DNA from: Leucoraja ocellata | Taxonomy: Eukaryota | NCBI GenBank assembly: GCA_036785375.1 | Contig: JAWMAR010000098.1 | Location: 4,092,001 to 4,156,000, forward strand | Reading direction: 5' to 3' | DNA length: 64,000 bases | The notes under the pieces: generated by a model | Seen by the model: only the letters and a program-made list of their open reading frames with translations | The model's database searches: none | Told to the model about the DNA's origin: nothing | Shown here: piece after piece, positions 3,146 to 59,039 of the stretch | Layout of the letters: the number at the start of each line of letters is the position of its first letter | How positions within the stretch are numbered: the first letter of the stretch is position 1 | Translations under genes and position numbers: made by a program

Positions 3146-3394
3146 GAATGGAATTTTGTAGCATTCCCAAAAACGAGTGAAGCTCTCTGGTATACACCTT
3201 ATCCTGGACAGGTTTCATCCCATTGAGGTCAATTCTAAGCCCAAATAAAGAATCTCAGATTGCGTAAACACAGCATCTTTATTGCTTCAACTATTTATGA
3301 ATTACAATCTGCAAAATAATTTCCCCTGAACTCAGCCGATTAAACGATCATCTTGGTTGCATTTACAACTCAGGATCCCCAGCAGCTGACTTAA

Positions 3395-3947
3395 AGGGCT
3401 GTCCCACTTGGGCGACCCAATTGGCGAGTTTAGAAGAGTTTGAAAAAATGACATGTTGAAGACCTCCTTCGACTATGTAGAAGACCTCCTTCCACCCCCT
3501 TTGACTATGTTGAAGACTAGCTACGACTAGCTACCACTAGCTACGACTAACTTTTGGAAAATTGGACACCGAATAGTGGAGAGTGAAGGCGACCTCCTTC
3601 GATCTCCTTCGACCTCCCTCCGACTATGATGAAGACTATCTACGACTACCTTCGACTACCCTCGATTACATACGACTAACATGCCGACCTACTACGACTA
3701 AACCTACGAGTAAAAGAATTATCGATTTTTTTCATTGGCGACCTTTTTTTAATCACGGCCATTTTTTAACATATTGGAAAAAAAAGCCGCAACCTAGCTG
3801 AGACCTTGAGTACGCGGAGACCACTCTCGAGCATGAAGGAGAGTTACGAAGACCTCCTATGACCTCGTGTTGACCATGCTGCAAGTATGAGTTGAGCGCA
3901 AACTCACCAGAACTCACGGATTAGGTCGCCCAAGTGGGACAGGCCCT
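3395..3947. mobile_element. PIF/Harbinger-like MITE, family A
   Basis: ~36-bp TIR agggctgtcccacttgggcgac / gtcgcccaagtgggacaggccct; flanks taa / tga; inverted sister copy at 47856-48375. Confidence 0.85.
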
Positions 3948-3994
3948 TGACCCTGTACAGCAACCTAGTTTACATCCAAGTGTAGGTTAACATT

Positions 3995-4625
3995 TAGGAA
4001 CAAGGAATTGCAGATGCTGCTTTACAAAAAAAGGAAACAAAGTACTGGAGAAACTCAACGGTCAGGCAGTTTCCTTGGAGAAAATGGATAGGTGACGTTT
4101 TGGGTTGGGATCCTTTTTCAGACTGATTGTGGGGGGGGGCGGAGGAGGGGGGGGGGAAAGAGGATGGACAGGTGTGTTTGATGATAGATGAACACAGGCA
4201 AGGGGAGGGTGGAGGGGGGGGGGGTGGTGGTTATGTAGGGTAGATGGTTGGCTAAAAGCCGGAGATGAATACAAAGGTGCAAGACAAAACGATTGAAAAG
4301 TTACAAATTGTGAAGCCAGAGGAAGGAATACAGGTGGAGGGGGAGGGGAGAAATAGGTGCAAGTCCAGGTGGGGCAGAGGGAAGAGGGGCAATAAAAAAA
4401 GGGGCTGTGTGGAAGAAAGGGAAGGGGGGGGGGGGGGGGGGGGTTGTTAGAGTTTACCTAAATCTAGAGAATTCAATGTTCATCATGTTGGGCCATTGGC
4501 TTCCCGGTGGAATATGAGGTGCCGTTCCTGCAGTTTGCCTCATTCTGGCAATGGAGGAGGCACAGGACAGAAAGGTCAGAATGGGTAGGAAGGAACAAAG
4601 GTCAGTACAGGAATGGGAAGAGGAG
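3995..4625 (-). mobile_element. Neptune-type Penelope-like element 3' fragment with degenerate hammerhead
   Basis: Reverse complement reads cagtctgaaaaaggatcccaacccaaaacgtcac; G-rich tract; homologous to 23450-23871. Confidence 0.85.
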
Positions 4626-8154: not shown

Positions 8155-8292
8155 CTCAGTCTGAAGAAGGGCCTCAAATCGAAACGTCACCCATTCCTTC
8201 TGTCCAGAGATGCTGCCTGTCCCCAGCTGAGTTGCTCCAACATTTTGTGTCTATCTTTGGTGTAAACCAGCATCTACAGTTCCTTCCTACAC
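8155..8292 (+). mobile_element. Short hammerhead-bearing Penelope-derived insertion
   Basis: CTGAAGA at 8161, GAAACGTC core; 10-bp TSD gctgaacagt at 8145-8154 and 8293-8302. Confidence 0.9.
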
Positions 8293-11370: not shown

Positions 11371-11513
11371 GATCCAATTAGTCTGATGAAGGGTCCGACC
11401 TGAAAAGTGGCCGATCACTTTACACCACAGATGCTGCCTGACCGGCTGAGTTCTTCCCAGCATCTTGTGTTTTGCTCAAGATTCCAGCATCTACAGTTCG
11501 CTGTGTCTCCATG
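11371..11513 (+). mobile_element. Short hammerhead-bearing Penelope-derived insertion (divergent subfamily)
   Basis: CTGATGA at 11383; 11-bp TSD cacatttggca at 11360-11370 and 11514-11524. Confidence 0.85.
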
Positions 11514-11999
11514 CACATTTGGCATTGGGTTTAGATTGGACTTATTTCCAATTAATTGGGTAAATTCTTGTTTGTGCTCTTTGTGTTAATCAGCATGTTA
11601 TGTGGCAGAAATTGTGCAATTATTAATGATTGCTGATGAAGACACATCAATGTTTTCGAAACAGGATTCATAAATCATACATTTTTAAATTAGCAGCCTA
11701 TTCATTTAAATATTTATCTTTCAATGGTAAAATAAAATATATGGGGGGGAGATAGCAAGACTGAAATAAAATATTGTGTTAGATCAAACAACTATTCTGT
11801 TTAATGCCCAATAGTTTAATGGGTTTAATAGAACTTAAAGGTAAGGAGATAGAACTTCAATAGAACTGAAAACTGACCACTGCATCGAATTGGACACTAA
11901 CTCAATACAGTCTATTTTACTTCTCCCAACATGCAGCTTTATTCATAAACCTTTACATTTCAAACACAATTAGGACAGGATCATTGCTTCATTTCTATA

Positions 12000-12107
12000 A
12001 ATCATGAGTCATGAGTCTGAAGAAGGGCCTAGAGCTGAAACGTCACTGATTCCTTTTCTCCAGAGGTGGTGCCAAACCCACTGAGTTACTCCAGCTTTTT
12101 CTGTCCA
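12000..12107 (+). mobile_element. Short hammerhead-bearing Penelope-derived insertion, 3'-shortened
   Basis: CTGAAGA at 12017, GAAACGTC; 14-bp TSD gcttcatttctata at 11986-11999 and 12108-12121. Confidence 0.9.
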
Positions 12108-18616: not shown

Positions 18617-20263
18617 GAAATGTGATGACCAGCCATACAAATTTGATACATGCTAGTCATTATATTTCTTTTAAATTGTGGAGTGCAATTACAATTTTAT
18701 TGTTGTTAAATGGTATCTTGGCAGTGAATGAAATTCAACATGTTAAGGTTAAAGTTTTAATAGGCTATTTTATCACTGTCATCACCATCTCCCTTTATTG
18801 GATTATTATAGAATCAGTCGTTTGAACATCCCCACAAAGGGACATCAAACTTCTAATAACTGCATATTTGAAAGAACTTCATTTAAAACATATAACAATC
18901 TTCTATTTTTCACTCCTATTTCATGTGCCAGGAACTCAAAGGCTATTGTATAATGACCTCTCGTTCAAAACATATTTCACAACAAAGTTACAGATTACAG
19001 AGAAACTTACTCCCTTTCTTGTGTTTGCCATATTCGCACAAGCACAACCAGGCGGCTAGATTTCCGCGCACATGGTATTTATTTTCTAAATTTTAATGAA
19101 AAGCATTCAAAAAACAGATAGGACTAACGTACAAAGAGATGAAATTTAATATATCCACGCACCCAGAGAGCCTTGCAAGGCGTGCATTCTGTAGACTCGT
19201 GAAAACGTACAGTTTGCCAAAATTTATTTGTACACCTTTTCAGAACCGCAGTGTAATATAAAAAGTGATGCAATGCAGTAGCTACGCTTTCATGACTTTC
19301 TTTATTTCTACCCATGGCTTTATGACAGATGTACAATTTAACTCCTACATCAATCGTTGCAGTCGCTCCAAAGCACCTGAATACAACCATGTCAGCATAG
19401 TTTCTGGCTAAGCAGCGAGTACACTGTTTCCGACCGTATAAACTAGCATCTTATTATCGTACATCGCTTTTCCATTCTTCATCCTACAATTTATGCCGCA
19501 GTCGCTATGAATGTAGTAACCAGGAGGATTATGTGCCAATTAGACATTGTGCATATTTCTAGTACTAAGTGCTCTCCTATGAATCAAACAGTGTGCTGTT
19601 TCCAATGAAAGGGCTGCTATAAAGCACACAATATGTTGTAACATAGCAAGTGGATGTCCTGTGGTTGTGTTCTTTCATTTCAATGGGTGGGGTGTACAGC
19701 TGGAGGAAGATGGGGCTTAGATCAGTGGAAAAGAATGATGCCGCTTTAGGGTATTGTTACAGGGTGGAGCACGAAAAGAATGAAATAAAAGAGGATTGGT
19801 TCCACTTGAATTTGGGAAGATTGAAATCAGTAAATCGGAAGTAGAAACAGTAAAAAAAAGTACAGTAAAACAGTCAAGAATTAACTGTAACAAAATAAAA
19901 TATGAATATTACAATTGGGCATTCCAATAATCTTCATTGTTTAAATAAAACTGAAGAATTCTCTTCTATTATTAGTGATTGGTGTGTGGTACAATATCAC
20001 CCTTAAATCTGACAATGATAGATTTTGTTTCGAATCCCCAAATTATTAAAGGCACTTAGCCAAGATGGGATTGGATCACACATCAGACATTATAGGCAGT
20101 ATTACAGCTGTTCCTAAATTCGAACAAACCTTTCAATGCATGTCATTTCAGTAATATTAAAAGTAAGAAAAATATATATCCAATCAAGGAATTTGAAGCT
20201 CTCAGATGAGGAGAATATTTCTAAATGTTTTCAAAGTTTATTATAGTTTTCAATATTTATTGT

Positions 20264-21125
20264 AGGGGGCGCTGTCCTGTGCACGGCTGCCCAGCTGCCC
20301 AGCCAGCAGCTGTCTGTCTTTTCATCTTTTTATTTTTTATTCTAGTTAGTTAAGTGTTTTGTTTGCAGGTCTAGACTTTTTTATGTGGGTGGGGGGAAGG
20401 GGGAAACTACCTTTCAGGGTGCCTACCTGGTCGGAGAGGCAGCTTTTCTCTGGGCTGCAGCTTCGACCCGTCCTCGCGGCCTACCAGCGGGCCTGGAGCG
20501 GCGTTTCCTGTCGGGGACCGCCCAGAACCTCGGCTTCGGCGGCGGCGCAGCGCTGGAGCGCTATCGCGGAGCGGGCGATGCCTTGCCCGGGTCGCCGCGC
20601 TGGAGCTCCAGTGAGCTGAAGATCGCTGAGGAAAACATCGCGGAGCTGCGGGACTGTGGAGCGACCAGCTGCGGGCGACGGCGCTGACTTTACACCCGGA
20701 GCCTGGGATCTCTAGATGAGATCGCCAGTTGTGGAGCTCCAACCGACGCGGCCTTGTTGGCTTTGGAAGCCGCGGCCTCCAGTACGGAAGCGGCCATTCC
20801 AGGGTTCCCAAGCCGCTGAGAGGACTCTCCCGATGCCGGAGCAACATCACCCGGCGAGAACGGCCTGGAACATCGGGCCTCCGTAGAGGCAACTGTGGAG
20901 GCCTCAATGGGCCCGACTATGGGTGAACTGGGGTTGGGGACTGGACTTTGTGCCTTCCCTCATAATGGGAACCATTGTGGGGGGATGTTCTTTATGTTTA
21001 AAACTCTTATTAATGTTATGTCTGTATTCCTTCTTTATGTGCTGCAAAATGGCAAGAAGCATTTCACTTCACTACACCTAGGTGTATGTGAATGTGACCA
21101 ATAAAATACCTTTGATACCTTTGAT
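20264..21125 (+). mobile_element. GC/CpG-rich non-autonomous retroelement with LINE-type tail
   Basis: Abrupt GC-rich insert in AT-rich DNA; begins gggggcgctgtc; ends gcatttcac...gtgaccaataaaatacctttgatacctttgat (tandem tail). Confidence 0.7.
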
Positions 21126-22149: not shown

Positions 22150-22622
22150 AGGGCGGCGTGACCAGCGTTGCAGCGGCCTCTGCAGTCCGTCTGTCTTTTT
22201 TATTTTTTTTGTCCCGTTGAGTGTATAGTTTTTTGTCTTTTTTAAAATTGTTTTTAGCTGTCTATGTGTGGGGGGCGGGGGGGAGGGGGACTTTTAAATC
22301 TCTTCCCTGTACGAGGGACCGGACCTTTTCCCTGTCAGGTCTCCGTTGTCGTTGGGGCCTAGCACCGTGGAGCGGCCTCCAACCGGAACGACCTGGGGGT
22401 TCCAGTCGCAGAGCTTGCGGACCTACCATCGTGGAGCTGGCCGAGTTCGGAACGGGAGGAGCGTGGTGGCGCACGGCTGTGAACTGACCCCGGAGCTTCG
22501 GAGGCTTCAGCCACAGGTCCGGTGGACGGTGATATCGAGAGTTTGCGGGTCCCTGGTAGGAGACCGCTTTTTGGAGCTCCCACAACGGCAACTTCTCCCG
22601 CCCGAATTGCGGGGTTGAAAAT
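22150..22622 (+). mobile_element. GC-rich non-autonomous element related to 20264-21125, 3'-truncated
   Basis: Same head layout: gggcggcg...gtctgtctttttta, T-rich tract, tatgtgtggggggg. Confidence 0.6.
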
Positions 22623-22627
22623 GACCT

Positions 22628-22693
22628 GGAAACCCTTCTTCAGGCCCGAAACTTTGCCTATTTCCTTCGCTCCATAGATGCTGCCTCACCCGA
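22628..22693. mobile_element. Small fold-back Penelope terminal repeat
   Basis: acccttcttcag (antisense core) joined to cccgaaac...ccttcgctccatagatgctgcctcacccg. Confidence 0.7.
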
Positions 22694-22699
22694 GGAGGT

Positions 22700-22807
22700 A
22701 AGGTATTTTTAAAGTTGTAATTTTAGTAACACAGCAGGCAATTTCTGCAGGGCAAGCCTTCACAAGCAGCATAGATGCAATGACCAAACAAGGCATTTTA
22801 GTTATGT
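22700..22807 (-). mobile_element. SacSINE1/DeuSINE-like fragment
   Basis: gcaggcaatttctgcagggcaagccttcacaagcagca...aatgacca...ttttagttatgttgg resembles the antisense SacSINE1 3' region (recalled consensus). Confidence 0.5.
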
Positions 22808-23033
22808 TGGAATGAACTGCAGATGCTGGTTTACACGGAAGATAGACTCAAAAAGCTGGAGGAAAAATCAGCGGGTCAGACAGAATCTCTGGAGAAAAGG
22901 AATAAGTGACGTTTCAGGTCAAGACCCTCCTTCAGACCTTTAATGAAGGGTCTCGGCCCAAGACATCACCGATTCCTTTTCTCCAGAGATGCTGACTGAC
23001 CCGCTGAATTACTCCAGCTTTTCGTGTCTATCT
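22808..23033. mobile_element. Inverted head-to-head pair of Penelope terminal repeats
   Basis: Antisense copy to about 22937 (gtgacgtttcaggtcaagaccctccttcagac), then a sense copy from atgaagggtctcggccc. Confidence 0.85.
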
Positions 23034-23049
23034 AATGCATTTTATTTCA

Positions 23050-23620
23050 GCAGTCACATACAACAGATAATCCTCCGACATCTTCGCCACCTCCAACGGG
23101 ATCCCATCACTGGCCACATCTTCCCATCTCCTCCCCTTTCGGCTTTCCGCAGAGACCGCTCCCTGCGTAACTCCCTGTCAATTCGTCCCTTCCCACCAAA
23201 ACCACTCCCTGGTACTTTCCCTTGCAACCGCAGGAAATGTTACACCTGTCTCTTTACCTCCCCCCTTGACTCCATCCAAAGACCCAAGCAGTCTTTCCAA
23301 GTGAGGCAGAGGTTCACCTGTACTTCCTCCAATCTCATCTATTGCATCCTCTGTATTAAGTGTCAACTGCTCAACATCAGTGAGACCAAGCGCAGGCTTG
23401 GCGATCGCTTCACTGAACACCTCCGCTCAGTTCGCATTTACTAACCTGATCTCCCGGTGGCTCAGCACTTCAACTCCCTCTCCCATTCCAAATCCAACCT
23501 TTCTGGCTCTGGCCTCCTCCATGGCTAGACTGAGTCCCACCGCAAATTGGAGGAACAGCATCTAATTTTTCGCATGGATAGTTTACACCCCAGCGGTATA
23601 AACATTGACTTCTCCAATTT
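23050..23620 (+). pseudogene. Disrupted Penelope-like ORF C-terminus (RT-EN linker and GIY-YIG endonuclease)
   Basis: LIY-x-C-xx-C-xxx-(Y)IGET-type motif degraded to NISET; reading frame broken near 23444. Confidence 0.85.
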
Positions 23621-23740
23621 CAGGTAGTCCTTGCTTTCTCCCTCCTTCCCCGCCCCTTCCCAGCTCTCCCACAGCCTACTGTCTCCGCCTCTTCCTTTCT
23701 TCTTCCCGCCCCACCTCCCCATCCCCCCCACCCCTACATC

Positions 23741-23774
23741 AGTCTGAAGAAGGATCTCGACCCGAAACGTCACC
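23741..23774 (+). ncRNA. Minimal type I hammerhead ribozyme motif (predicted GUC cleavage after 23771)
   Basis: agt-CTGAAGA-a-ggat-ctcg-accc-GAAAC-GTC-acc; one mismatch in stem II. Confidence 0.75.
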
Positions 23775-23949
23775 TATTCCTTCGCTCCATAGATGCTGCC
23801 TCACCCGCTGAGTTTCTCCAGCATTTTTGTCTACCTTCGATTTTTCCAGCATCCACAGTTCTTTCTTAAACATTTGAATTGTTTTGTAAGAGAAATAAAC
23901 ATTTGCATGGATACTTGAGATAATTCCATCACTTTCCTCAAGAGCCAAA

Positions 23950-26433: not shown

Positions 26434-26891
26434 GACAGACACAAAATGCTGGAGTAACTCAACAGGTCTGGCAGCATCTCAGGAGAAAAAGGATGGGTGA
26501 TGGTTCAGGTCGGGATCCTTCTTCAGACTGAAAGTAGAGGGGGCGGGTGGGAAATAGAGGTAGGAAAGGGCCAGAACAAATAAGGACCAGCAACAGATGA
26601 CCAAGAAACGGTGGAGCCCATAATGGCTCATTGTGGACTGGGGAAGAGATGATAATGAAGGGATACTGAAATATGATCAGTGGAACTAGTAGGAAGACTT
26701 GGGTGGGGGAGAGGTAATGTAGAGGTTACTTAGAGGTAATTAGAGAAATCAGTGTTCATACCGCTGGGCTATAAGCTGCCCAAGCGAAGTAGGAGGCAAC
26801 TTCTCCAGAGATGCTGCCTGATCTGTTGAGTTACTCCAGCACTTAGTATCTAGTTTTGGCATAAACCAGCATCTGCAGTTCCTTCCTACAA
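26434..26891. mobile_element. Penelope-like insertion with internal inversion
   Basis: Antisense 3' end (26434 to about 26797) fused to a sense tail; 11-bp TSD tgcatatagat at 26423-26433 and 26892-26902. Confidence 0.85.
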
Positions 26892-27157: not shown

Positions 27158-27344
27158 GTAGGAAGGAACTGCAGATTACACCAAAGATAAACACAAAATG
27201 CTGAAGTAACTCAGCCGGACAGGCAGCATCTGTGGAGAGAAGGAATGGGTGACGTCTTGACCCGAAACGTCACCCATTCCTTCTCTCCAAAGATCCTGCC
27301 TGTCCCGCTGAGTTACTCCAGCTTTTTGTGTCTATCTTCAGAGG
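27158..27344. mobile_element. Palindromic fold-back Penelope terminal-repeat insertion
   Basis: ~75-bp inverted arms around gacgtcttgacccgaaacgtc; 11-bp TSD cttggaattgt at 27147-27157 and 27345-27355. Confidence 0.9.
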
Positions 27345-29391: not shown

Positions 29392-29490
29392 AGTCTGAAG
29401 AGGGGTTCCGACCCAAAACATCACCGATCCATATTCTCCCGGGATGCTGCTTAACCCACTGAATTACTCCAACATTTTGTGCCTATATTT
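29392..29490 (+). mobile_element. Short hammerhead-bearing Penelope-derived copy (degenerate)
   Basis: agtctgaagaggggttccgacccaaaacatcacc...gatgctgcttaacccactgaattactcca. Confidence 0.8.
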
Positions 29491-29756: not shown

Positions 29757-30012
29757 CCATAGAAACATAGAAACATAGAAATTAGGTGCAGGAGTAAGCC
29801 ATTCGGCCCTTTGAGCCTGCACCGCCATGCAATATGATCATGGCTGATCATCCAACTCAGTATCCTGTACATGCCTTCTCTCCATGCCCCCTGATACCTT
29901 TAGCCACAAGGACCACATCTAACTGGCCTCAACTACCTTCTGTGGCAGAGAATTCCACAGATTCACCACTGTCCGTGTGAAAAATGTTTTTCTCATCTCG
30001 GTCCTAAAAGAT
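29757..30012 (-). mobile_element. CR1/HER1 LINE 3' end
   Basis: (catagaaa)n tail, ggtgcaggagtaagccattcggccc, gaattccacagattcaccac. Confidence 0.85.
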
Positions 30013-32420: not shown

Positions 32421-33038
32421 TAGGGTGGCATTGTGGCGTAGTGGTAGAGCTACTGTCTTCAGGCCCTGTCTCACTTTCCTGAGTTACTCACGAATTCTCC
32501 CGAGTTTTCCCCTTGATTCGAACTCGGGGAAATTTGGGCAATGTCGGTAGCGAGCTCGTAGGAGCCCCTAGGAGTCCGTAGATGTTTCGTAGCGACTCGA
32601 AATGCCAGCCGTAGGAACTTGGGACATCAGGTATGAGTAAAAATAAATAATCCCGAGTACTTACGAATGGCTGTTGCCGAAATTCTCCGAGTTCGAATCA
32701 AGGGGAAAACTCGGGAGAGTTCGTGAGTAACTCGGGAAAGTAGGACAGGGCCTTTACAGTGCCAGAGACCCGGGTTCAATCCTGACTACAGGTGCTGTCT
32801 GTACGGAGTTTGTACGTTCTCCCCGTGGCCTGCATAGGTTTTCTCCGAGATCTTTGTTTTTCTCCCACACTCCAAAAACATACAGCTTTGTTGGTTCATT
32901 GGCTTAGTATTAATGTATAAATATAAAATTTGTTCCCAGTGTGTGTAGGGTAGTGATAATGTGCGGGGATCGCTGGTTGGTGCGGACTAGGTGGTAAGAA
33001 GGGCCTGTTTCCGCACTATATCTCTAAACTAAACTAAA
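32421..33038 (+). mobile_element. tRNA-derived SINE (HE1/V-SINE-like), interrupted by a MITE
   Basis: A-box gtggcgtagtggtagagc, B-box gggttcaatcc, tail gaagggcctgtttccgcactatatctc(taaac)n. Confidence 0.88.
32461..32753. mobile_element. PIF/Harbinger-like MITE, family C, nested in SINE
   Basis: ~70-bp TIR aggccctgtctcactttcctgagttactcacgaa... / ...ttcgtgagtaactcgggaaagtaggacagggcct; flanks ttc / tta. Confidence 0.88.
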
Positions 33039-34541: not shown

Positions 34542-34960
34542 ACATAGAAACATAGAAAATAGGTGCAGGAGGAGGCCATTCGGCCCTTCGAGCCAACAAC
34601 GCCATTCATTGTGATCATGGCTGATCGTCCCCATCAATAACCCGTGCCTGCCTTCTCCCCATATCCCTTGATTCCACTAGCACCTAGAGCTCTATCTAAC
34701 TCTCGCTTAAATCCATCCAGTGACTTGGCCTCCACTGCCCTCTGTGGCAGGGAATTCCACAAATTCACAACTATCTGGGTGAAAAAGTTATTTCTCACCT
34801 CAGTCTTAAATGGCCTCCCCTTTATTCTAAGACTGTGACCCCTGGTTCTGAACTTGCCCAACATTGGGAACATTTTTCCTGCATCTAGCTTGTCCAGTCC
34901 TTTTATAATGTTATATGTTTCTATAAGATACCCCATCATCCTTCTAAACTCCAGTGAATA
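34542..34960 (-). mobile_element. Young CR1/HER1 LINE 3' fragment
   Basis: ORF LIETYNIIKGLD...RTRGHSLRIKGRPFKTEVRNNFFTQIVVNLWNSLP (CR1 ORF2 C-terminus); (catagaaa)n tail. Confidence 0.93.
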
Positions 34961-36434
34961 CCTTAGGCTCGGACATGGTAAATGCCAGTTAGCACAAAGA
35001 ATAAAGATCAGAGGCGCTTTAAATCATTCATTCACTAAGAGCAGGTTGATAAATCGAGTAGGTTGAAGACACTCTTGTTTGACAAGTCCAAGTACTTGTT
35101 CTGTGATAAAGAATATGCAGCTGGCATTAGCAAAACATGCATATTTACTTCATCAAATGGCTTTTTCTATCAACTCATTAGCAATTACATTTCCAATTAA
35201 ACAGGTACATCTATCATGCAAACAACATTTGATTCCTTCCCCATCGCACACTATAAAATCCAGCTGCTATATAAACCTCTGTGCCAAACCGTAAATATGA
35301 AGTATGATGATATGGGCAACTCTACAAAGACGAAATGGTAACAATGGTGCGTTAATTAAATTTCAAATCTTTAATTATTCCCGATTTAATAAAAATCCTT
35401 ATTGCGTCAGACAGACAGGCTTTCAGAGGCAGAAAATGTAGTCAAATGCAACAGTAACTCAAAACACATAGGCCTTTGATTGGTGTGTAATAAACAGTCA
35501 ACCAGTGGCAAAGAACACACAGCTGCAGCTCTGAGTGTTGGCAGAATTCCAGAATAGTGGATCTGGCAGAAGAGCTGGAGTCGATAGTTCATTTTAATTA
35601 CTTTTAATTAAAGGTACTTTGCATTTTTAATTAATTGATTTAGAGGTATTCATTCACAGGTTGGAATCAACATGTTAACAATTATGAGTTCGTGGGATAA
35701 ATCCTTTACATAATACATTCATTTGGAGAGTGGGCTTACCCTTTTTTTAAACATGCATTTACTTTATCGTAAAATATCCCCGGTTTATAAAAAACAAATT
35801 TGTTTTCTGACAGACTGCACCAATATTTTGTTGGTGGAATATTGATGCAGATTTGAAACTCACATCTTTGCAGATATAATTTAATTTTCTTGTTTCCCAT
35901 AATTGCATTATTCTGACATTTGTGTTCAATAGTTTGTATGGATGGCATCAAATTTTAAACACAATTTAAGATAAGTGAAAATGATGGGAAATATAATTTT
36001 CTACACCAGAGGATTAATTGGAAAACTCATTGATGGGTTAGATGGCCTCCTTGTGTGCTGAGCTCTTAAGGTAGATTGCCAAAGGTACTGTTGAATTCCA
36101 ACATATAATTGAATACAAAATGATCTTATATTATTTTTTATTATAGCATAACTGGTCACAACTATATGGTGATTTACAAAGACATTCATATGCATGCAGT
36201 TTTCTGTTGGGATTAGGGTACATTTAAGGCAACCATAATTATCTCATTGAGAAGTCTTGGTTAAAGGTACATGGAATAATATGATAAAAGTCTGAACATA
36301 AATCTAAATGGTATTGAATTGAATGGGCTGACAAGATGTTTCAGAACTTATTATTCTCCTCTCTATTCTCAGTAAATGCATTTTCTTAACCAATGATACG
36401 ATAATTGAACCATTGACCATTGAATCATCAGCAA

Positions 36435-36740
36435 AAGCAGCATGAAAACAGGCCCTTCAGCCCACCGATTCCATGCTAACATTGATCACCCATTCACACT
36501 GGTTCTGTGTTATTCCACTTTTGCACCCACCCCCTACACACAAAAGGCAATTTACAGAGGCCAATAGGCCTACATGTCTTTGCGATGTGAGAGGAAACCA
36601 GAAGACACAGAGGAAACCCGTATGGTCCCAAGAAGAATGTGAAAACTCCACCAAGACAGCACCCGAGGTCAGGATCGAGCTCAGGTCTCTGGTGCTGCGA
36701 TGCAGCACGTCTATCAGCTGTGCCACTGTGCTGCCCTTCT
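36435..36740 (-). mobile_element. tRNA-derived SINE (HE1/V-SINE-like)
   Basis: acaggcccttcagcccacc...gtcaggatcgagctcaggtctctggtgctg...gccactgtgctgccct. Confidence 0.85.
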
Positions 36741-36949: not shown

Positions 36950-37770
36950 AGACGTTGTGAGGTCTGCTTGCCTTCGTTGATCCAGGCATTGAGTATAAAA
37001 GTCAGGAAGTCATGTTGCAACTGCCTAAAACTTTGGAGTATTGTGTGCAGTTCTGGTCGCCACTTTTAAAAGAAGGATGTAAAGGCTTCAGGAGGGGTGT
37101 AGAGGTTTGCCGAAATGCCACTGGGATTAGAGGATATTAGCTATAAGGAGAGGTTGGACAGGGTTAAATTGCTTTCTCTGGAACATTGGGGGTTGAGGGA
37201 AGACCTGATAGAAGTTTATAACATTATGATAGACATTGATAAGGTACATAGATTATTTTCTCCAGGGTAGAAATGTTAAATACTGGAAGGCATGGCTTAA
37301 AGGTCAGAGGGGGGAAGTTGACAGGAAATAGGCGGAGCAAGTTTTTTTTACACAGAAAGTGCTGGGTGCCTGGAAAGTGCTGGAAGCAGACACGATAGTG
37401 ACGTTTCATCATGACTTTTATTGCATTTCTTTCATTCATAGTTTTTCTCGTTTCCCTTATCCCTAACTACTCTGTAGAAGGTTCTCTACCCGAAAAGCCA
37501 CCCATTCCTTCTAGCCAGAGATGCTGCTTGTCCCATTGAGTTACTCCAGCTTTTTGTGTCTATCTTTGGTTTAAACCAGCATCTGCAGTTCCTTCCTACG
37601 CAGTAACATTTAACAGGTATTTAGACCGGTACATGAATGTGCAGGGAATTAAGAGATATGTATCAGATTCATGTCGATGAGATTAATTTAATTTGACATC
37701 ATGTTTGACATAGACATTGTGTGCCAAAGGATCTCTTCCAGTGCTGTAGTGTTCTATGTTCTAAATTCTA
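36950..37770 (+). mobile_element. CR1 LINE 3' fragment with nested Penelope repeat
   Basis: ggagtattgtgtgcagttctggtcgcc (LEYCVQFWSP), gagggaagacctgatagaagtttataac, ttctatgttcta tail. Confidence 0.85.
37440..37601 (+). mobile_element. Penelope terminal repeat copy nested in CR1
   Basis: ctgtagaaggttctctacccgaaaagccacccattcc...aaaccagcatctgcagttccttcctac. Confidence 0.8.
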
Positions 37771-41994: not shown

Positions 41995-42430
41995 TAGTTT
42001 GGCAGATGGGTGAACAATGGCTAGAGATGAAAAGAAGGCAACAAGGCGTTAGGTAAGTAGAGAGGGGTGAAATATGAAGGCAGAGGGAGGGATATACATG
42101 GAAGGTGAAGGGAAAGGGGAGTGGGATAGTCAGATAAATGGGTGTGCACCCGGAGTTTGGGGAAAGGGGAAAGCAAAGGGGGTGAAAGAAAAGAGGGGAG
42201 GAGGGGGGTTACCTAAAATTATAGAATTCAATGTTTATTTTGTTGGGTAGTAAGCTGCCCAAGCAGAATATGAGGTGCCGTTCCTTCAGTTTACACGTGG
42301 TTTCACTCTGGCAGTGAGGAGGCCCAGGACACGAAGGTCAGTGTAGGAATGGGAAGGGGAGTTAAAATGGTTAGCAACAGGAGATCCAGCAGGCCTTGGC
42401 AGATCAAGTGTTCAATGAAACAGTCCATTG
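41995..42430 (-). mobile_element. Neptune-type Penelope-like 3' fragment
   Basis: Homologous to 4250-4625 and antisense to 23400-23700 (gaattcaatgttt...aagctgcccaagcagaatatgaggtgccgttcc). Confidence 0.8.
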
Positions 42431-43419: not shown

Positions 43420-43721
43420 GAATCATTTTACAGATGCAGCACAGAAACAGGCCTTTCGGCCCACCGACAAGCAATCATCCTGCATATTAGCACTATTCTA
43501 CACACTAAGTACAATTTACAATTTTTTACCGAAGCCAAATTAAGCTATAAACCTGTACATTTTTTGGAATGTGGGAGGAAACCAGAGCACCTGGAGAAAA
43601 ACCATGCGATCACAGGGAATACGTCCAAAATCCATACAGACAGCGCCCGTAGTCAGGATCGAACCTGGGTCTCTGGCACTCCAAGGCAGCAAGTCTAACC
43701 CTGCACCACGGTGCCGCCCTT
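43420..43721 (-). mobile_element. tRNA-derived SINE (HE1/V-SINE-like)
   Basis: gaaacaggcctttcggcccacc...gtcaggatcgaacctgggtctctggc...gcaccacggtgccgccct. Confidence 0.88.
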
Positions 43722-45199: not shown

Positions 45200-45782
45200 C
45201 AACAGGCAAAGCCCCCCTCCGCCTCCCAGGACTGGAGGATTTTTCCCCATCGATGAAAAATCAGAGAGATATTAATGTTTTTTAAAAATTCCCCATTCTC
45301 TCTGCTGCCCCCTCTGGCGGCAGGGGGGTACTATAAATCCCGTAAGTGTAGTCCCTCAATCAGTCTCTGCCAGACCCAGGAAGTGGGAGGGTTTCGGCTC
45401 TCTGAGGCTGTTAGGTGGCTGCTGCTTAATTGTTTGCCTCGCCTTTTTAACAAGTTTGTGTTCACAAAATGAATGTTGGTTGTCGGGTGACTGCTGGCCA
45501 ATTGTTTGCCTCGCCTTTTTAACAAGTTTGTGTTCACAAAATGAATTTTGGTTGTCGGGTGGCTGCTGCCAAATTGTTTGCCTCGCCTTTATAACAAGTT
45601 TATACTAGCCCTCTGGAAACCAGTACCTTCGGCCCGCAACACCCATACTAGTGCAATAGAAAGCCCCCACCCCCCCCCCCCCCCCACTGGCGAGCAATAT
45701 TGGAATTGGTGGAGAGGTGGAATATTGCGTTGGTGACCAACCCTCCGTGTGATGCTGGGACCCAACGGGTCCCACTCTATAG
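45200..45782 (+). mobile_element. Helitron-like non-autonomous element
   Basis: 3' GC hairpin tgggaccc-aac-gggtccca (45756-45774) shortly before ...tag|t; no TIR or TSD; 5' boundary uncertain. Confidence 0.6.
45414..45601. repeat. 72-bp minisatellite, about 2.6 copies
   Basis: aattgtttgcctcgcc recurs at 45428, 45500 and 45572. Confidence 0.9.
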
Positions 45783-45963: not shown

Positions 45964-46058
45964 AGTCTGAAGAAGGGTCTCGACTCGAAACGTTACCCAT
46001 TCCTTCTCTCCAGAAATACTGTCTGTCCCGCTGAGCTACTCCAGCATTTTGTGTCTAT
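45964..46058 (+). mobile_element. Short hammerhead-bearing Penelope-derived insertion
   Basis: agt-CTGAAGA-agggtctcgactc-GAAAC-GTT; 9-bp TSD ctccaacaa at 45955-45963 and 46059-46067. Confidence 0.9.
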
Positions 46059-46547: not shown

Positions 46548-46955
46548 AGGGTGGCACAGTTGTACAGTGGCACAGTTGCTGCCTTCCAGGACGAGAGATC
46601 CTGACTATGGGTGCTGCCTGTATGGTGTTTGCATGATCGCCATGTGAACACATTGGTTGCTCCAGTTTCCTCCAACACTCGAAAGACGTTCAGGTTTGTA
46701 AGTTGTAAATCAGGTTTGTCTGAAGAAGGGTCTCGACCGGAAACATCGCCTATTTCCTTCGTTCCACAGATGCTGCCTCACCTGCTGAGTTTCTCCAGCA
46801 TTTTTGTCTACCTTCGATTTTCCAGCATCTGCAGTTCCTTCTTGAACGGGTTTGTAAGTTAATCAGCTTCTGTAAATTGATCGCTGGTCGATGCAGGTCC
46901 GGTTGGCCGAAGGGCCTGTATCCACGCTGTATCTCTCAACTAAACTAAACTAAAC
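46548..46955 (+). mobile_element. tRNA-derived SINE interrupted by a Penelope-derived insertion
   Basis: agggtggcacag head, gaagggcctgtatccacgctgtatctc(taaac)n tail. Confidence 0.82.
46705..46848 (+). mobile_element. Short hammerhead-bearing Penelope-derived insertion (subfamily B)
   Basis: CTGAAGA at 46720; 12-bp TSD ggtttgtaagtt at 46693-46704 and 46849-46860. Confidence 0.9.
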
Positions 46956-47745: not shown

Positions 47746-47855
47746 TATATATTTTTTAATTGGGAAAACCAACATTTATCACTCTTCCTTAATTTTCCAT
47801 AAGAAGGTGCTGTTGGATTCTCTGCATGAATTACTGTTGTCTTTAGGTGAAGTTA

Positions 47856-48375
47856 AGAGGCTGTCCCATTGTGATGACCTAATCCGCGAGTTCTGGCGAG
47901 TTTGCCCTCGACCATGAGGTCCTAGGAGGTCTTTGTGACTCTCATTCATGCTCGAGAGTAGTCCCCGCATACTCGAGGCCTCAGCTTGGTCGCAGCGTAA
48001 TTTTCAACATGTTGAAAAATGCCGGCGAGTATATAAAGGTCGCCATGTAAAAAAATCGATACTTTTTTTACTCGAAGGTTTAGTCAAAGTAGGTCATAGT
48101 AGATCGGCATGTTATTCGTAGGTAATCGAGGGTAGTCGTAGGTAATCAAAGGTAGTCGAAGGTAGTCATACATAGTCTACAACATAGTCGAAGGGAGGTC
48201 GAAGGAGGTCGTCTTCACTCTCCACTATTCAGTGTCCAATTTTCCTGAAGCTAGTCGAAGCTAGTCTTCAACATAGTCAAAGGAGGTTGAAGGAGGTCTT
48301 CAACATGACATTTTTTCAAACTATCCTAAACTCTTCTAAACTCACCAATTAGGTTGCCGCAGTCGGACAGCCCCT
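47856..48375. mobile_element. PIF/Harbinger-like MITE, family A (inverted relative to 3395-3947)
   Basis: agaggctgtccca...agtcggacagcccct; TTA TSD on both sides; internal gtagtcga repeats. Confidence 0.88.
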
Positions 48376-48659
48376 TTACTCACACAAAGCTGTTGGATGG
48401 AGAGTTCCAAAACTTGCACTCAATGAGAGTGAAGAAATGATACAGTGTTTCAAAATTAAGATGGACTGTGACTTGAATGGGGTCTTAGGTGACGTTGTTC
48501 ATATCAACCCCCCTGCTCCCATCTTTCAGCATGGTGGAACCAGAAAACAAATCATTCAGTTAGATCCAAAATGGAATGTAAATGACATGGATGTAAATAT
48601 ATTGGGTCAGTTAGTAATTTGGTAAGATTGCCGGGAATTGTGGACAGTGGCTGTCAAAC

Positions 48660-49680
48660 TATACAGAGGGGCATGGAGCAATCACAGATAGTGGCAGAGA
48701 AATGACAGATGGAGTTAAATGTGAGCAAGTGAGAGGTGTTAGACTTTGCAAGGAATGGAATGGAAGGGGAATTAATGGCAAAACACTTAACTGCAGTGAT
48801 GTGCAGAGGGCTCTTGGGATCTAGGCCCAAAGATCTCAAAAGGTGGTAAGTTTATATGTTCTAGGACCATAATAAGGCTATTCGGCCCAACAAGTCTATT
48901 CCGACATTCAATCATGGCTGATCTATCAGGTAACACAAGTAGGAAGGAATATGTAGAGTTTGCCTTCATTGGTTGGGGCACTGAGTACGAGTCAGGAATT
49001 CATGTTGCGGTTCCTTAAGATATTAGTTAGGCTGTGTTTGGAATATTGGGTGCAATTCTGGTCACCGCATCTCACGAAGGATGTGGAGGCATTGGAGAAG
49101 GAGCAGAGGAGGTTTACTAGAATGCTGAAGATAGACACAAAATGCTGGAATAACTCAGCGGGACAGGCAGCATCTGTGGAGAGAAGGAATGGGGTTTCAG
49201 GTTGAGATCCTTCTTTAGACTCTAATAGAATGCTGCCTGGATTAGGAGGTGTCGGCTACAAGGGGAGGTTGTGCAAACTTGACTTTCTCTGGAATACAGG
49301 GAGTTGAGGGGGATCTGATGGAAGTATATACAACTATAGGACACTTAGATGGGGGAGATAGTCAGAACCTTTTTCCCAGAGTGGAAATGTCAAAGACTAG
49401 AGGGCATAGTTTTAAGGTGAGAGGGGCACAGTTTAAATATGTGCAGGGCAAAGTTTTTACACATAGCATAGGGAGTGCCTGGAATGTGCTACCAGCAGTG
49501 GTAGTGGAGGCACATAAGATGGGGCATTTCAGAGGCTTTTGGATGGGCACTTGAATATTTGGGGAATGGAGGTAAATAGAATATGCGTTGGCAGTTGAGG
49601 TTAGTTTATAGTGGCATCATCTTCAGCACAGGCATTGTAGGTTGCAGGACCAGTTCCTGTGCTGTCCTGTTCTATGCTCC
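48660..49680 (+). mobile_element. CR1 LINE 3' fragment with nested insertions
   Basis: LVRLCLEYWVQFWSPHLTKDVEALEKEQRRFTRML and GDLMEVY...SKTRGHSFKV...AWNVLP motifs. Confidence 0.88.
49128..49225 (-). mobile_element. Short Penelope-derived insertion nested in CR1
   Basis: 10-bp TSD tagaatgctg at 49118-49127 and 49226-49235. Confidence 0.88.
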
Positions 49681-50247: not shown

Positions 50248-50689
50248 ACCAAGCGCAGGCTCGGCGATCGTTTCACTGAACACCTCCATTCAGTCTGCCT
50301 AAACTTACCTGATCTGGTTGCTCAACATATTAACTCCCCCTCCCACTCCCACACTGACCTTTCTGTCCTGGGCCTCTCATCCATTGTCAGAGTGAGGCCC
50401 AGAGCAAATTGGAGGAGCAGCACCTCATATTTCACTTGGGCAGCTCACACCCCAGTGGTATGAACATTGACATCTCTAACTTCAAGTAGCCCTTGCTTTC
50501 CCTCTCTCTCCATCCCCTCCCCCTTCCCAGTTCTCCGACCAGTCTTACTGTCTCTGACTACATTTTATCTCTGTACCGCCCACTCCCCTGACATCAGTCT
50601 GAAGAAGGGTCTCGACCCGAAACATCACCCATTCCTTCTCTCCAGAGATGTTGCCTGGCCCGCTGAGTTACCCCAGCATTTTGTGTCTA
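50248..50689 (+). mobile_element. Neptune-type Penelope-like 3' fragment
   Basis: TKRRLGDRFTEHLHSV...VAQHINSPSHSHTDLSVLGL, then terminal repeat. Confidence 0.9.
50596..50629 (+). ncRNA. Minimal type I hammerhead ribozyme motif
   Basis: agt-CTGAAGA-a-GGGT-ctcg-ACCC-GAAAC-ATC-acc; intact stem II, G-to-A change in stem III. Confidence 0.72.
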
Positions 50690-51649: not shown

Positions 51650-51835
51650 CAACTGTACCCACCTGTCACTTGCCAGTTTTTGTCCTGCCCCCACCTCTTT
51701 TCAAGCTTTCTCCCCCACTCCTCCCTAACCTCTATCAGTCTGAGGAAGGGCCTTGACCCGAACATCGTTTGTCCACAGATGCTGTCTGATCCATTGAGTT
51801 CCTCCAGGCAGGCATACTGTTACTGATTCCAGCCT
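51650..51835 (+). mobile_element. Decayed Penelope terminal region
   Basis: C-rich tract, then cagtctgaggaagggccttgacccgaacatc...cagatgctgtctgatccattgagttcctccag. Confidence 0.75.
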
Positions 51836-54900: not shown

Positions 54901-57009
54901 GATTGTTTATAAAATTGTTTTAAAAAGTCATCTGACTTTGTGTTTATTAAGACTCACGCCGTAGTTAGAAGACCACAGTTGTCTGCGTACATCAAGGAAA
55001 ACAAAGAAAGAAATGTCCTTAACTGTCACTTTTAATAAGAGAAGTCAACCTGCCTCTATTCAGGTTAAATATTGCCCTGTCACTTTTCAATTGAGTCAAC
55101 AGATTTTTTTTTTAAAGTCAAAGCATAGTGTATGCAAAAATCTGTCATAATGTGACAGATCTGTTCTCATTCAAAAAATTCTATTGTGAAATCTGAAAAC
55201 TAACTTTTCATAATCAGCAATGGCATTAAATGGAGTATTTGCATGATAACAATGGGTTTTTCTAATTTAATGAAGGCTTGGAGGCTTCCATTGTAAAGTT
55301 TACAAGCACCTCCAGCATTTCCATTTGCAGTCATTTGAAAAAAATATAGATTTATAAGGAAGCTATTTTAAAATGAAGCTTCCATGTTACCAAGACATGC
55401 ACATGGTATAAAAAAAAGATGAATTGTTCTCTTGTTTTTCATGCAATCCACTGTATAAATTTGATTATGAAATGTAAAACATTTTATCAGTTAGTGTTCA
55501 GCAAGACAAAACATATGTAAAATGCATTCTAGTTACATGTCTTGTTAAGGTTCAGGTAACAATAATGTCAATATTATTGATTAAAAACAAACAAATCTCT
55601 GACCAGCAGAAGATGAGCAAAATGCTTCCAAATTCACAAGATGCTTCTTTTGAAATATTATACATATAATAATTATCAATGTGGCTGTTGTGTGGAAAAT
55701 GTAAGCAATAAAATTAAATGCCTATTTTTCCAAAAACAAAATCTGAAATTGGTTCACTGGTCATACAAGGCAAGCAACCAAATAAAAGCCACATAATCAG
55801 AAGGTGACCTTTATAAATAAACTTGAAAATTAAAAACTTGTGATAAATAATCTTGCCAGAAATTCTCACTGTTGACTCAGAGGTTTTACACTAACACTGA
55901 AATGCCAAAACAGAACAAATAACATTTCTACCCACTTACAATATGATGACTATTTTCATCATTATCATTTTTTATTAAGTTCTGTAAAGATTCCCCACAA
56001 ATTAAATCATATATGTTCCCTTATGAATACTGAGATGTCATGCTCTGATTGTGGATATATATATTTTTATCATGATTTCCTCGTGCATCTTTATTGAATA
56101 TGTTATAATCATACCACATCATCGTGGTATGTCACAGAAAATTTGAAATTTGTTGATTCTGCAGAACATGTAAGCAAGTTCTGCCTTCACATTTTGTCAG
56201 CAAATATATTTTGGTAAAACAGATTTGAAACTTTATAGGATTTACTGAATGCACAACCCACCTCTCATGCTTTGTCCAGTTCTGGGGCAAATTAACTGCT
56301 GGCAGAGCATTGGGAAGAATTGATAGTTTAGGAGTTAGTTGTCGTGGTGAAATGCTATTTCAATATACAGGCCATCTGTAGGTTACTAGCACCCAACTTA
56401 TGGCCATCAATACATACTGACGATCTCCCACAATAATATTCAATTCAAAACTCTGTTATGCCTATCTATGTTAATCCCCTTGGCAAAACTGGTTGCTTTT
56501 CCCTCTCGACTTTTAATAATTGTTAATTCATATCAGTCTTATGTGTTTTTGATGCCATTCATTACAGTGGAGGTCATCGCATAATTATTGCATATTTTCA
56601 GACTGGTGAACGTTTGTAAAAATGGAGCTTGTTCGTTACCCAGAGACGGCCTGTATACCGTACTATTAACGCAGCAAATCATTCCAAGGCACTTCGCCGG
56701 ACAGCTATCAAATAAAAACTGACACAAGCCACATAATATCTGGACAAATGATGAAAGATTTGGTCCAAGAGATATTGCTTTGAGGAGCACCCCGTAGGAG
56801 AGAGGAAAGGTAAGAGGGCATAATGATTCAGCAGGAAATTCTGACCTTATAATCTTGACAACTGGAGCTGTGGTATTCAATGGTGAAACAATTAAATCAG
56901 GGAACGATGAAGGGATTATAATTAAAGGAGTGGCGATATCAGGTAAATTAATGCAGCTAAAGGAGATTACAATAGAAGAAAGAGAAAAGACCATGGAGGA
57001 ATTTGAAAA

Positions 57010-57054
57010 CACCATGAGTATTAGTGGTCCACCATGAGTATTAGTGGTCCACCA
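57010..57054. repeat. Perfect 20-bp tandem duplication
   Basis: accatgagtattagtggtcc at 57011-57030 and 57031-57050. Confidence 0.95.
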
Positions 57055-59039
57055 CGATGCCATTGCAATAGGCTGCCTGTGCTTCTGAATACTTTCAGAG
57101 AACTGTGCTAATTAAAAGAACTTCACTAATTAAAAGTTAACAATAGCACCATAACCACAGACATGTTTCCAGGTCAAATATATCTGCCAATTTTGTGTGT
57201 TTTAAAGGTGTAGTTTGTTACTCAGAGTTTACATGGCCAATAAGAAACAGTGAGCAATGAACAAGATAAGGAGGATACAATAACATGAGCCTGGTGCCAT
57301 GTCATGAAGTACAAGTCTTTGCAACAGTAGCCCTTCATTGAGAATGCATAAAGCAAATGAGCTTGGGAACGTGAATTAGTTGATTCTTTGCTAAATTGTA
57401 TCAAGCTTTCCTGTCCTCCACACTTTTGTCACCTGCTGTAGCAGTAAAAAGAATAATTGAGTGTATATTGTGATCAACAATTAATAGATTTTTGTAAGCA
57501 GACCAGTAATTAGGACTGAGCGAGAAGGAGTGGGGAAATCAATAGATTGAAACAGCTTCACACATGTTGTGCACAAAGTTTTAATGATTCGTAGAAATCA
57601 ATGATGAATTCTAAGCCTCTTTTAACTTCCAAGTAAGTTTTTATTGTGTTCGTTTACTTTTAAATAATAAAAATAGCAGATTCACAGTGAATTATCAATG
57701 ATTAGAAATTCCAAGCACCCTTGCAGACTGACCCCAATGTACTCTTCGATATTGGTCTGTAATTGGCTGAAGATGGAGTGTTGCAGGACTTTGCTTGGTA
57801 CCTGATCAATACACCATTCACTAATTTTTCGCATTGTATAATGTGAATAGTTAGGAGCATAATCTGTTCCTGCATACTTTCTATCTGGGTACACTACACT
57901 TATTTTTCTCAGTACGGATTTAAAATTGTGATTATATTCATATGGCAAATAAATATTTTACAACTGACTAGTGTAGGACTATTTGGATTCATGAAAACAC
58001 AATATTTTATTGTTTCTACTCGGGTCTGCTTCCACACAATTCAGCAGAAACTGATCAAACAGAACAAGCCATGTCAAGTCTAAATTGAATTTGTCCATTA
58101 GTTTACAAAACCGGCACTGAAATTTGGCAAAGTTGGCAACAACCAAAATAAAATCAATCACCATTCATATTTCTGCTAATTGTGGATCCTTTTGCAGCTT
58201 GACTAGACTTTTAAAATCAAGCTTTTTTGTTTAGCTACACGGATGCCAATAGGCCTGTATAAAAACCTTTGCTATTTTAAATATTTGACAAGTGCTTCAC
58301 AATAGCGCAGGTACTATTTCATTCATGATAGTGCCTGAAAATTATTTTCAGTTGGACAAAGTTATGATACAGCAGCAGTAGATAGGATTTTATTTTAAGA
58401 TACTGCATTAGTAAAAGTGCATCCATTAGCACTCATAACAAGAAACATATCTTTATACAATCCTTTAAAATGCTGCAGGTTGCACAGATGATTTTTACAT
58501 TTAAAGATGCACAAAGGAATCTGAGCAGAAATTTGGGGCGACAACGACTCTTAATGCCAATTCAGAGTAATTCAGCACTTAGATGAATGAGCAGACGCAA
58601 AACAGAAAATCTTGGCTTCTGTGTGAAGAATCCAGAAAGCTCCTCTGTTCGGTGGTGCAAAACTAGCCACAGAAATTAAAGGTGTGGAATGTGAAGAGAG
58701 GTATGTCACAACGTGTCTGATAATCAAACCCATTTAGCATTAATGACCATGGGTAACACCCCACTAAGATGTCCCCCAGCAATAAACCTTACCTATGCTG
58801 ACGTACTAGCCTCACTCTGTCTCCTTCATGTACATCAGCACATCAGTCAATAATCAAAGCTGAAATAAATGTGATTGTGCCATGAGAGGTGCCTGCAATC
58901 TGAGAAAAACAAATAATCAGATCAATGTGTATAGTGTGGTACTGTGATCTATATCACCTACTTCTATGAAAAGACCACTTTATGTTAAAATGCTAACATC
59001 CATAATCCTTTAAAATAGAAACGATTTCAATAAGTTTAA

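Follow-up and report, generated by a model that had tools for sequence, protein, structure and literature searches.

The window, by which we mean the whole 64-kb stretch of DNA analysed here, contains a short motif with the core of a hammerhead ribozyme in many copies, together with remnants of a retroelement. This raises the question whether the locus harbors a set of working ribozymes or whether the motif is part of a mobile element, whose copies have carried it along.

The retroelement and its copies in the window

Reading-frame translation revealed a single-frame ORF fragment at 23052-23624 with two internal stops (23442-23444 and 23526-23528; terminal stop at 23625-23627), which represents a dead, 5'-truncated Penelope-like ORF (23052..23627, +) consisting of a linker and a GIY-YIG endonuclease. 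The Cys linker has the form CX4CxxC (23223..23249, +; C58-C66 of the protein P0001) and is followed by a spacer of 23 residues up to the Cys preceding the GIY. The GIY-YIG core, including the internal CxxC of the CCHH, is located at 23334..23381 (+); it is degenerate and reads LIY...NIS, the YIG having changed to NIS by decay in this copy, and the CCHH is also present. In an alignment of 16 relatives, the residues of the CX4CxxC linker and the CCHH are invariant or nearly so, with the C-terminal C101, C104, H123 and H139 conserved in all 16 proteins and the stop located right after the domain. Downstream of the ORF follow a pyrimidine-rich 3' UTR tract (23628..23740, +), the hammerhead motif (23741..23773, +), the remaining pLTR end-repeat sequence as far as the short 3' end (23772..23833, +), for which hairpins are predicted, one of them competing with the hammerhead fold, and an optional tail of about 38 nt, which leads to the long 3' end (23834..23871, +).

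A search of longer proteins yielded 27 relatives among 486 candidates, several of which contain a reverse transcriptase (RT). Shark/ray proteins occupied the top five places (57-63% identity), and echinoderm as well as unnamed proteins came next. In Pfam scans the relatives matched GIY-YIG and RVT_1, and the full-length relatives P0003 and P0007 matched PF01541; GIY-YIG was not recognised in P0001, which only gave a weak C1_4 match (E=0.59). An RT is present in the relatives P0020 and L030. The latter (L030:1-3513) is a complete related element with a 936-codon open frame encoding RT and GIY-YIG, flanked by two repeats that are 95.5% identical and that both contain the hammerhead motif.

According to Craig et al. 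2021 (PMC8557442), a Cys linker marks the Neptune and Nematis clades, whereas Poseidon lacks it and Naiad has it at the N-terminus; membership is indicated by a linker CX2-5CxxC, which is reduced in Nematis, and the Neptune clade itself is paraphyletic. The spacer after the CxxC, counted by eye against the rows of Fig. S2 of that paper, comprises 23 residues here. Four Neptune-type rows have 25-27 residues at this place, and three Nematis rows have 7. Since the linker and a long spacer precede a C-terminal nuclease, the architecture is that of Neptune, and we classify the element as Neptune-type on this architecture, not on an RT tree. It shares with the Neptune clade (PMC8557442) the C-terminal GIY-YIG with CCHH, the CX2-5CxxC linker and the long spacer as well as a hammerhead close to the 3' end, inverted truncated partners and a 30-40-bp tail, but differs in that the 5'-truncated copy at 23052 retains only the final 191 codons of the element and that no RT was found in the 64-kb window. 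The original prediction of a Penelope element with a Cys linker and a GIY-YIG nuclease is borne out, and that of a Neptune type as regards the architecture.

Further fragments comprising both nuclease and end repeat are located at 50248..50689 (+; 76% identical to 23385-23833), 4002..4585 (-; motif core mutated, G8>A and G12>A) and 26437..26788 (-). A fifth nuclease fragment (42206-42421, -) has the pyrimidine tract; no motif was found downstream of it.

With an iterated nhmmer profile we identified 26 copies of the end repeat in the 64-kb window, i.e. one per about 2.5 kb, of which 17 span the hammerhead. Within rough bounds, the family and its ORF remnants make up about 4.9 kb or about 8% of the window. 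The strict pattern CTGANGA-N3-25-GAAAC matched 8 times compared to 0.81 matches expected from shuffles, and 6 of these 8 belong to the Penelope repeat family; the matches at 11633 (+) and 21843 (-) have no UH behind GAAAC and were dismissed as chance. The high copy number anticipated by the original prediction was therefore confirmed, the profile count of 26 being higher than the proposed figure of about 20. All positions named there (10/10 on the plus strand, 7/7 in antisense and the anchor copy) are indeed copies of one repeat; an intact core does not hold for all of them, as the copies at 29395 and 38668 carry G12>A and the copy at 51740 a deletion.

Several other repeats and frames were observed in the window. 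Repeated LINE 3' ends, which we take to be CR1-like, are located at 218-349, 29765-30008, 34542-35023, 37124-37389 and 49239-49498; the frame at 34634-35020 had no Pfam match. A dispersed family of 170-260-bp repeats (574-745, 32758-32982, 36571-36738 and 43462-43721) is presumably SINE-like, and ARAGORN found no tRNA for it. The two members of a 565-bp repeat pair (3387-3951 and 47852-48382) are 73% identical, lie on opposite strands and contain internal 10-bp tandem units. Two blocks rich in GC and CpG, whose starts resemble each other (20260-20960 and 22150-22640), stand out in the CpG-poor window (o/e 0.38) and are probably the 5' ends of another retroelement. A 72-bp tandem repeat is present at 45414-45601 (2.6 copies, 92% matches), and the region 56539-57111 contains a 190-codon open frame on the minus strand and a purine-rich 79-codon frame on the plus strand, the latter without a Pfam match.

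Conservation and decay of the hammerhead motif

The motif reads AGU-CUGAAGA-A-GGGU-CUCG-ACCC-GAAA-CGUC-AC and is laid out as a minimal type I hammerhead with a stem I of 2-3 bp, an inserted A, a stem II of 4 bp and a loopless ACGU palindrome as stem III. In the copy at 23741, a stem I of 2 bp goes together with CUGAAGA, the inserted A, a stem II with one mismatch (23752-55/23760-63), GAAA and the ACGU palindrome, and the cut is predicted after 23771. The core CUGANGA...GAAA...UH was found in the majority of the window copies.

Next to the window copies, we analysed 80 related metagenome loci (the best 80 of 460 confirmed), 56 of which have at least 250 nt downstream and were used for counting. 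A sense motif located 105-300 nt past the nuclease match was present in 25 of these 56 loci, compared to 1 in antisense and 0.1 in shuffles, and all 25 carry the inserted base after A9. In a set of nine motifs, hand-picked as one per type, covariation was seen for pairs 2-4 of stem II and pairs 1-3 of stem I (shuffle P 0.0002-0.025, uncorrected for relatedness). The stem II pairs hold in 9/9 motifs with several pair types and stem I pairs 1-3 in 9/9, 7/9 and 8/9, respectively, while stem I pairs 4-5 do not hold across the nine. It is across these selected motifs, and not from the window copies alone, that G10.1-C11.1 and the covariation of stems I and II were found. The ACGU palindrome of the window family is replaced by AUAU in L030. 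From this sequence comparison we conclude that the predicted hammerhead fold is real and conserved across related families.

The minimal type I hammerhead, the dimer-type stem III and the stem I of only 2-3 bp, as originally predicted, all found support. The extra A had been regarded as a variant; instead, minimal hammerheads in general have an unpaired base between 9 and 10.1, along with the palindromic 15.2-16.2 and the loopless stem III (Cervera & De la Pena 2014, PMC4209133), and this base occurs in 25/25 relatives. The ribozyme class had thus been described in 2014 already, with both the additional A and a stem III formed by ACGU without a loop. The same study reported minimal hammerheads in fish Neptune, Poseidon and Xena elements, with inactive monomers and weak dimers. 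Like these, the window motifs are of type I without a loop 3, have the palindrome, the inserted base and G10.1-C11.1, and are embedded in an end repeat that mostly occurs as dispersed single copies; they differ in having stems at the short end of the range (stem I 2-3 bp, stem II 4 bp). The density of 26 repeats per 64 kb is far above the approximately 4,000 (coelacanth) and 9,000 (Xenopus) descriptor-passing motifs per genome listed in PMC4209133. Shark or skate terms were not found in the searched text and supplement of PMC4209133, and the searched passages of PMC12602865 contain nothing on the motif. Protein and motif scans of viral contigs and a motif scan of prokaryote genomes yielded nothing.

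Most window copies are broken. Only one of the 17 motif-spanning copies, at 45964, is intact by all motif criteria: 6/17 are free of core defects, 4 of those 6 have kept the palindrome, and only 45964 also has all four stem II pairs. The mismatch of the 23744 copy is an A-C in stem II at 23754, a position at which 84-89% of the RNA reads of run X21 from a related organism have a G. The catalytic G12 sits in a CpG and is changed in 8/24 copies. In the 13 copies of the main subtype, after removal of three edge columns, the core has changed at 8/104 positions (7.7%) and the downstream repeat at 69/726 (9.5%; p=0.72), and CpG sites decay faster than others (24/103 vs 97/994, p=0.0002). When all 26 copies were pooled, changes were rarer in the non-CpG core (16/204) than in the downstream repeat (205/1414; p=0.009), which we read as conservation between subfamilies plus an alignment-edge bias, yet which counts against pure neutrality. 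The conservation of core and covariation of stems that the original prediction called for is therefore missing within the window and present across families. We read these data as selection on master elements, followed by neutral decay of the copies after insertion.

From this we conclude that the repeats belong to a Penelope family of Neptune type, which carries the minimal hammerhead known from the literature, is very abundant and has decayed in almost all copies; the scattered window copies are likely to be inert. The proposed very high load of ribozyme motifs holds for the number of copies and not for working ribozymes, given that 1/17 is intact and the core decays like its flanks. As a ribozyme discovery, the locus thus carries little weight. 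By analogy with studied elements, the role of the motif is probably limited to active master elements, in which the predicted GUH cleavage would be weak, would take place in a dimer formed via the ACGU palindrome and would probably be helped by the protein of the element.

Predicted folding, reads of related organisms and the question of activity

When 14 copies were folded at a length of 95 nt, the predicted probability of stem II was at most 0.11 in 13 of them, because pairing between the core and a segment located downstream is predicted for most copies. For the copy at 23741, predicted pairing joins 23746-23755 with 23772-23787, and likewise in most of the 14 folded copies. In these models the hammerhead appears to be held off by a competing hairpin, and the segment just past the cut site is possibly an off-state for the ribozyme. 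Closing stem III is beyond a monomer, as this stem is loopless. For a dimer of the best copy, the hammerhead fold was predicted at +0.1 compared to -22.9 kcal/mol for the best alternative, tertiary contacts being outside the energy model.

We also made use of four sequencing runs of related organisms. In the run search, which returned no matching RNA run, the three best matches share 52-57% of words. Two DNA runs yielded 169,777 and 145,873 contigs, in which the motif region is about 10-20x deeper than the ORF, a summed depth that does not equal copy number. From run X21, of which about 6% was used, 15,241 raw poly(A) reads were obtained, which cover the motif about equally in both directions. 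Neither start nor end pile-ups were seen in X21; as the strandedness is unrecorded and the loci are mixed, this is weak evidence against cleavage. Loose ends before 23777 mark a common subtype among the RNA reads, which has a GUU triplet and whose stem II is capped by a UUCG loop; this stem II may be more stable than that of the window copies. A joint from 23833 to 23093, i.e. from the short 3' end back to the ORF, occurs in reads or contigs of all four runs and suggests a short, internally deleted tandem form in the related organisms; a few joints going back about 90-99 in their contigs suggest rare tandems elsewhere.

These data bear on two opposing views of the motif. The dense spacing of the repeat, the six copies with a defect-free core, the same-strand neighbours only 0.6-1.2 kb apart (11380/12014, 45964/46718 and 50596/51737) and the presence of the repeat in poly(A) RNA of X21 could point to a genome-wide set of working ribozymes, which cut host transcripts as monomers or via dimerising neighbours. 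The loopless stem III makes closure of a monomer impossible, however, each neighbour pair includes at least one damaged partner, the low stem II probabilities and the unfavourable dimer energy (with tertiary contacts unmodelled) argue against folding, and the X21 reads are balanced in direction without an end pile-up, so we consider such a set highly improbable. It is just as hard to credit that the motif is a chance look-alike or solely a promoter or protein-binding element, which is never catalytic. It is true that the Rfam scan of the window returned no hammerhead match at E<=10, that the hammerhead is not the predicted minimum-energy fold and that the function of such motifs is described as unsettled (PMC8557442). 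Against this stand the invariant core, the covarying stems and the constant position behind the nuclease in widely differing families, the in vitro cleavage by related motifs, which is abolished by core mutations (PMC11167929), and the weak cleavage by dimers (PMC4209133). The miRNA-family matches of the same Rfam scan were far below gathering scores, reflect inverted copies and were set aside.

Insertion of the repeats and their fixed 5' boundary

Target-site duplications of 9-14 bp flank 7 of the 25 copies tested, compared to 10/600 (1.7%) mismatched pairs; the other 18 had no duplication of at least 9 bp, and none was detected around the 23050 and 50248 elements. Solo copies with a duplication are located at 8155..8292 (+; long tail, 10 bp), 11371..11513 (+; divergent subtype, long tail, 11 bp), 12000..12107 (+; short end, 14 bp), 45964..46058 (+; 95 bp long, starting exactly at the A of AGT, GUU triplet, 9 bp), 46705..46848 (+; 23741 subtype, long tail, 12 bp) and 49128..49225 (-; short end, 10 bp). 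The 3' ends of the duplication-bounded copies fall at model positions 95-100 (n=4) or 133-136 (n=3). Two head-to-head inverted pairs, both composed of a tailed and a short arm, lie inside direct repeats: the pair at 27158..27344 in an 11-bp target-site duplication (27147/27345), and the pair at 22805..23033, with the long-tail arm on the minus and the short arm on the plus strand, in an 8-bp repeat (22793/23037). The copy at 22941 was considered as the 5' repeat of the 23052 element and rejected, because it belongs to another subtype and has its own flanking duplication; the pair at 22805..23033 is most likely an independent insertion. The inverted end repeats, the optional tail and the target-site duplications correspond to the end structure of Penelope-like (EN+) elements, and inverted junctions, tails and solo repeats have been described before (PMC3846280, PMC8557442, PMC8969392).

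Taken together, we are confident that the 26 copies represent the 3' end repeat of an abundant Penelope-like family and contain its minimal hammerhead motif completely or in part, likely inserted by target-primed reverse transcription (TPRT) and now likely decaying unselected. According to this scenario, the RT-GIY-YIG protein would nick the DNA and then copy its own RNA, reverse transcription would start at one of two internal sites separated by about 38 nt, giving rise to short or tailed 3' ends, and priming from both DNA strands would generate head-to-head pairs within one duplication. The copied RNA would be the uncut form, because the copies keep the whole motif. This mechanism is carried over by analogy from a Poseidon-clade lizard element, for which Frangieh et al. 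2024 (PMC11167929) reported two internal RT start sites, which define the tail, cleavage and extension of both strands, and a hammerhead that requires protein for cutting and is dispensable for insertion in vitro. The window data are consistent with this model. Poseidon PAc of Anolis (PMC11167929) and the window family have in common two 3' ends separated by the tail, insertion from uncut RNA and the absence of RNA-seq ends at the cut site, whereas Poseidon lacks the Cys linker. In PAc, the ORF begins inside the hammerhead. Non-LTR retrozymes (bioRxiv 10.64898/2026.07.22.740005), which were found in one cartilaginous fish, are likewise non-coding, hammerhead-bearing derivatives of Penelope end repeats, but are defined by tandem head-to-tail units, unlike the dispersed solos and inverted pairs seen here. 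Tandem Repeats Finder and the positions of the profile copies revealed no head-to-tail array in the window, and thus no two or more consecutive head-to-tail units with complete hammerheads.

After exclusion of the copy at the window edge and of the 4 copies linked to an ORF, 21 copies remain. Of these, 11 start at model positions 1-5 without the pyrimidine tract upstream, 5 carry this tract and 5 begin inside or past the motif; none starts at the cut site (model position 32). The clustering corresponds to a binomial p of about 7e-6 for an interval picked post hoc, or 0.002 when only 8 copies are counted. Of the seven duplication-bounded copies, six have 0-14 extra bases ahead of the motif. In the DNA runs X1 and X10, at least 824 and at least 745 contigs, respectively, diverge just before 23741, with an AT-rich flank of low agreement (0.32). 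This boundary suggests a transcription start combined with internal priming of reverse transcription.

Such a boundary might reflect SINE-like short copies: a promoter in the end repeat would start the RNA at the A of AGT, 3 bases before the core, and the protein would prime internally on the first repeat and copy to the RNA 5' end, which might yield solos of 95-135 bp that are re-transcribed and remobilised. This proposal is compatible with TPRT insertion of the end repeat and adds to it, and we hold it as a tentative possibility, somewhat short of an even case. The cluster of starts, the short leaders of the duplication-bounded copies and the contig divergence in X1 and X10 speak for it, and the sequence TCAGTCT at the boundary presumably fits the initiator consensus. 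An internal promoter is moreover contained in the Drosophila Penelope repeat (PMC2377424). Against the proposal, X21 shows no start pile-up (weakly so, with mixed loci), a consistent extra G ahead of the motif was not seen, the second copies of related loci start anywhere from -376 to +124 without a TCAGT context, and a drop-off of the RT at the edge of the C-rich tract could produce the same boundary. Starts at the cut site form no peak in the related loci either, with 4 of 23 distinct second copies at +24 to +29 given the spread from -376 to +124. That sharks and rays in general carry a Penelope-derived, SINE-like element of 95-135 bp, whose 5' end is a transcription start just before the hammerhead and which is present in perhaps hundreds of thousands of copies, seems to us rather unlikely on present data. 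In the literature searched, which did not extend to Repbase or to one supplementary file of PMC4209133, we found no report on the fixed 5' boundary or on this family.

If the SINE-like reading is true, the Penelope promoter and both RT start sites could be read off the genomic copies, which would also show that uncut RNA was transposed; the predicted transcription start is testable directly. For shark and ray genomes, the results mean that counts of hammerhead motifs mostly reflect dead repeat copies. The window represents a natural record of Penelope-like insertion, which extends the in vitro model of the lizard Poseidon element to a Neptune-type family with regard to the two 3' ends, the inverted pairs within one duplication and the sharp 5' boundary at the edge of the motif.
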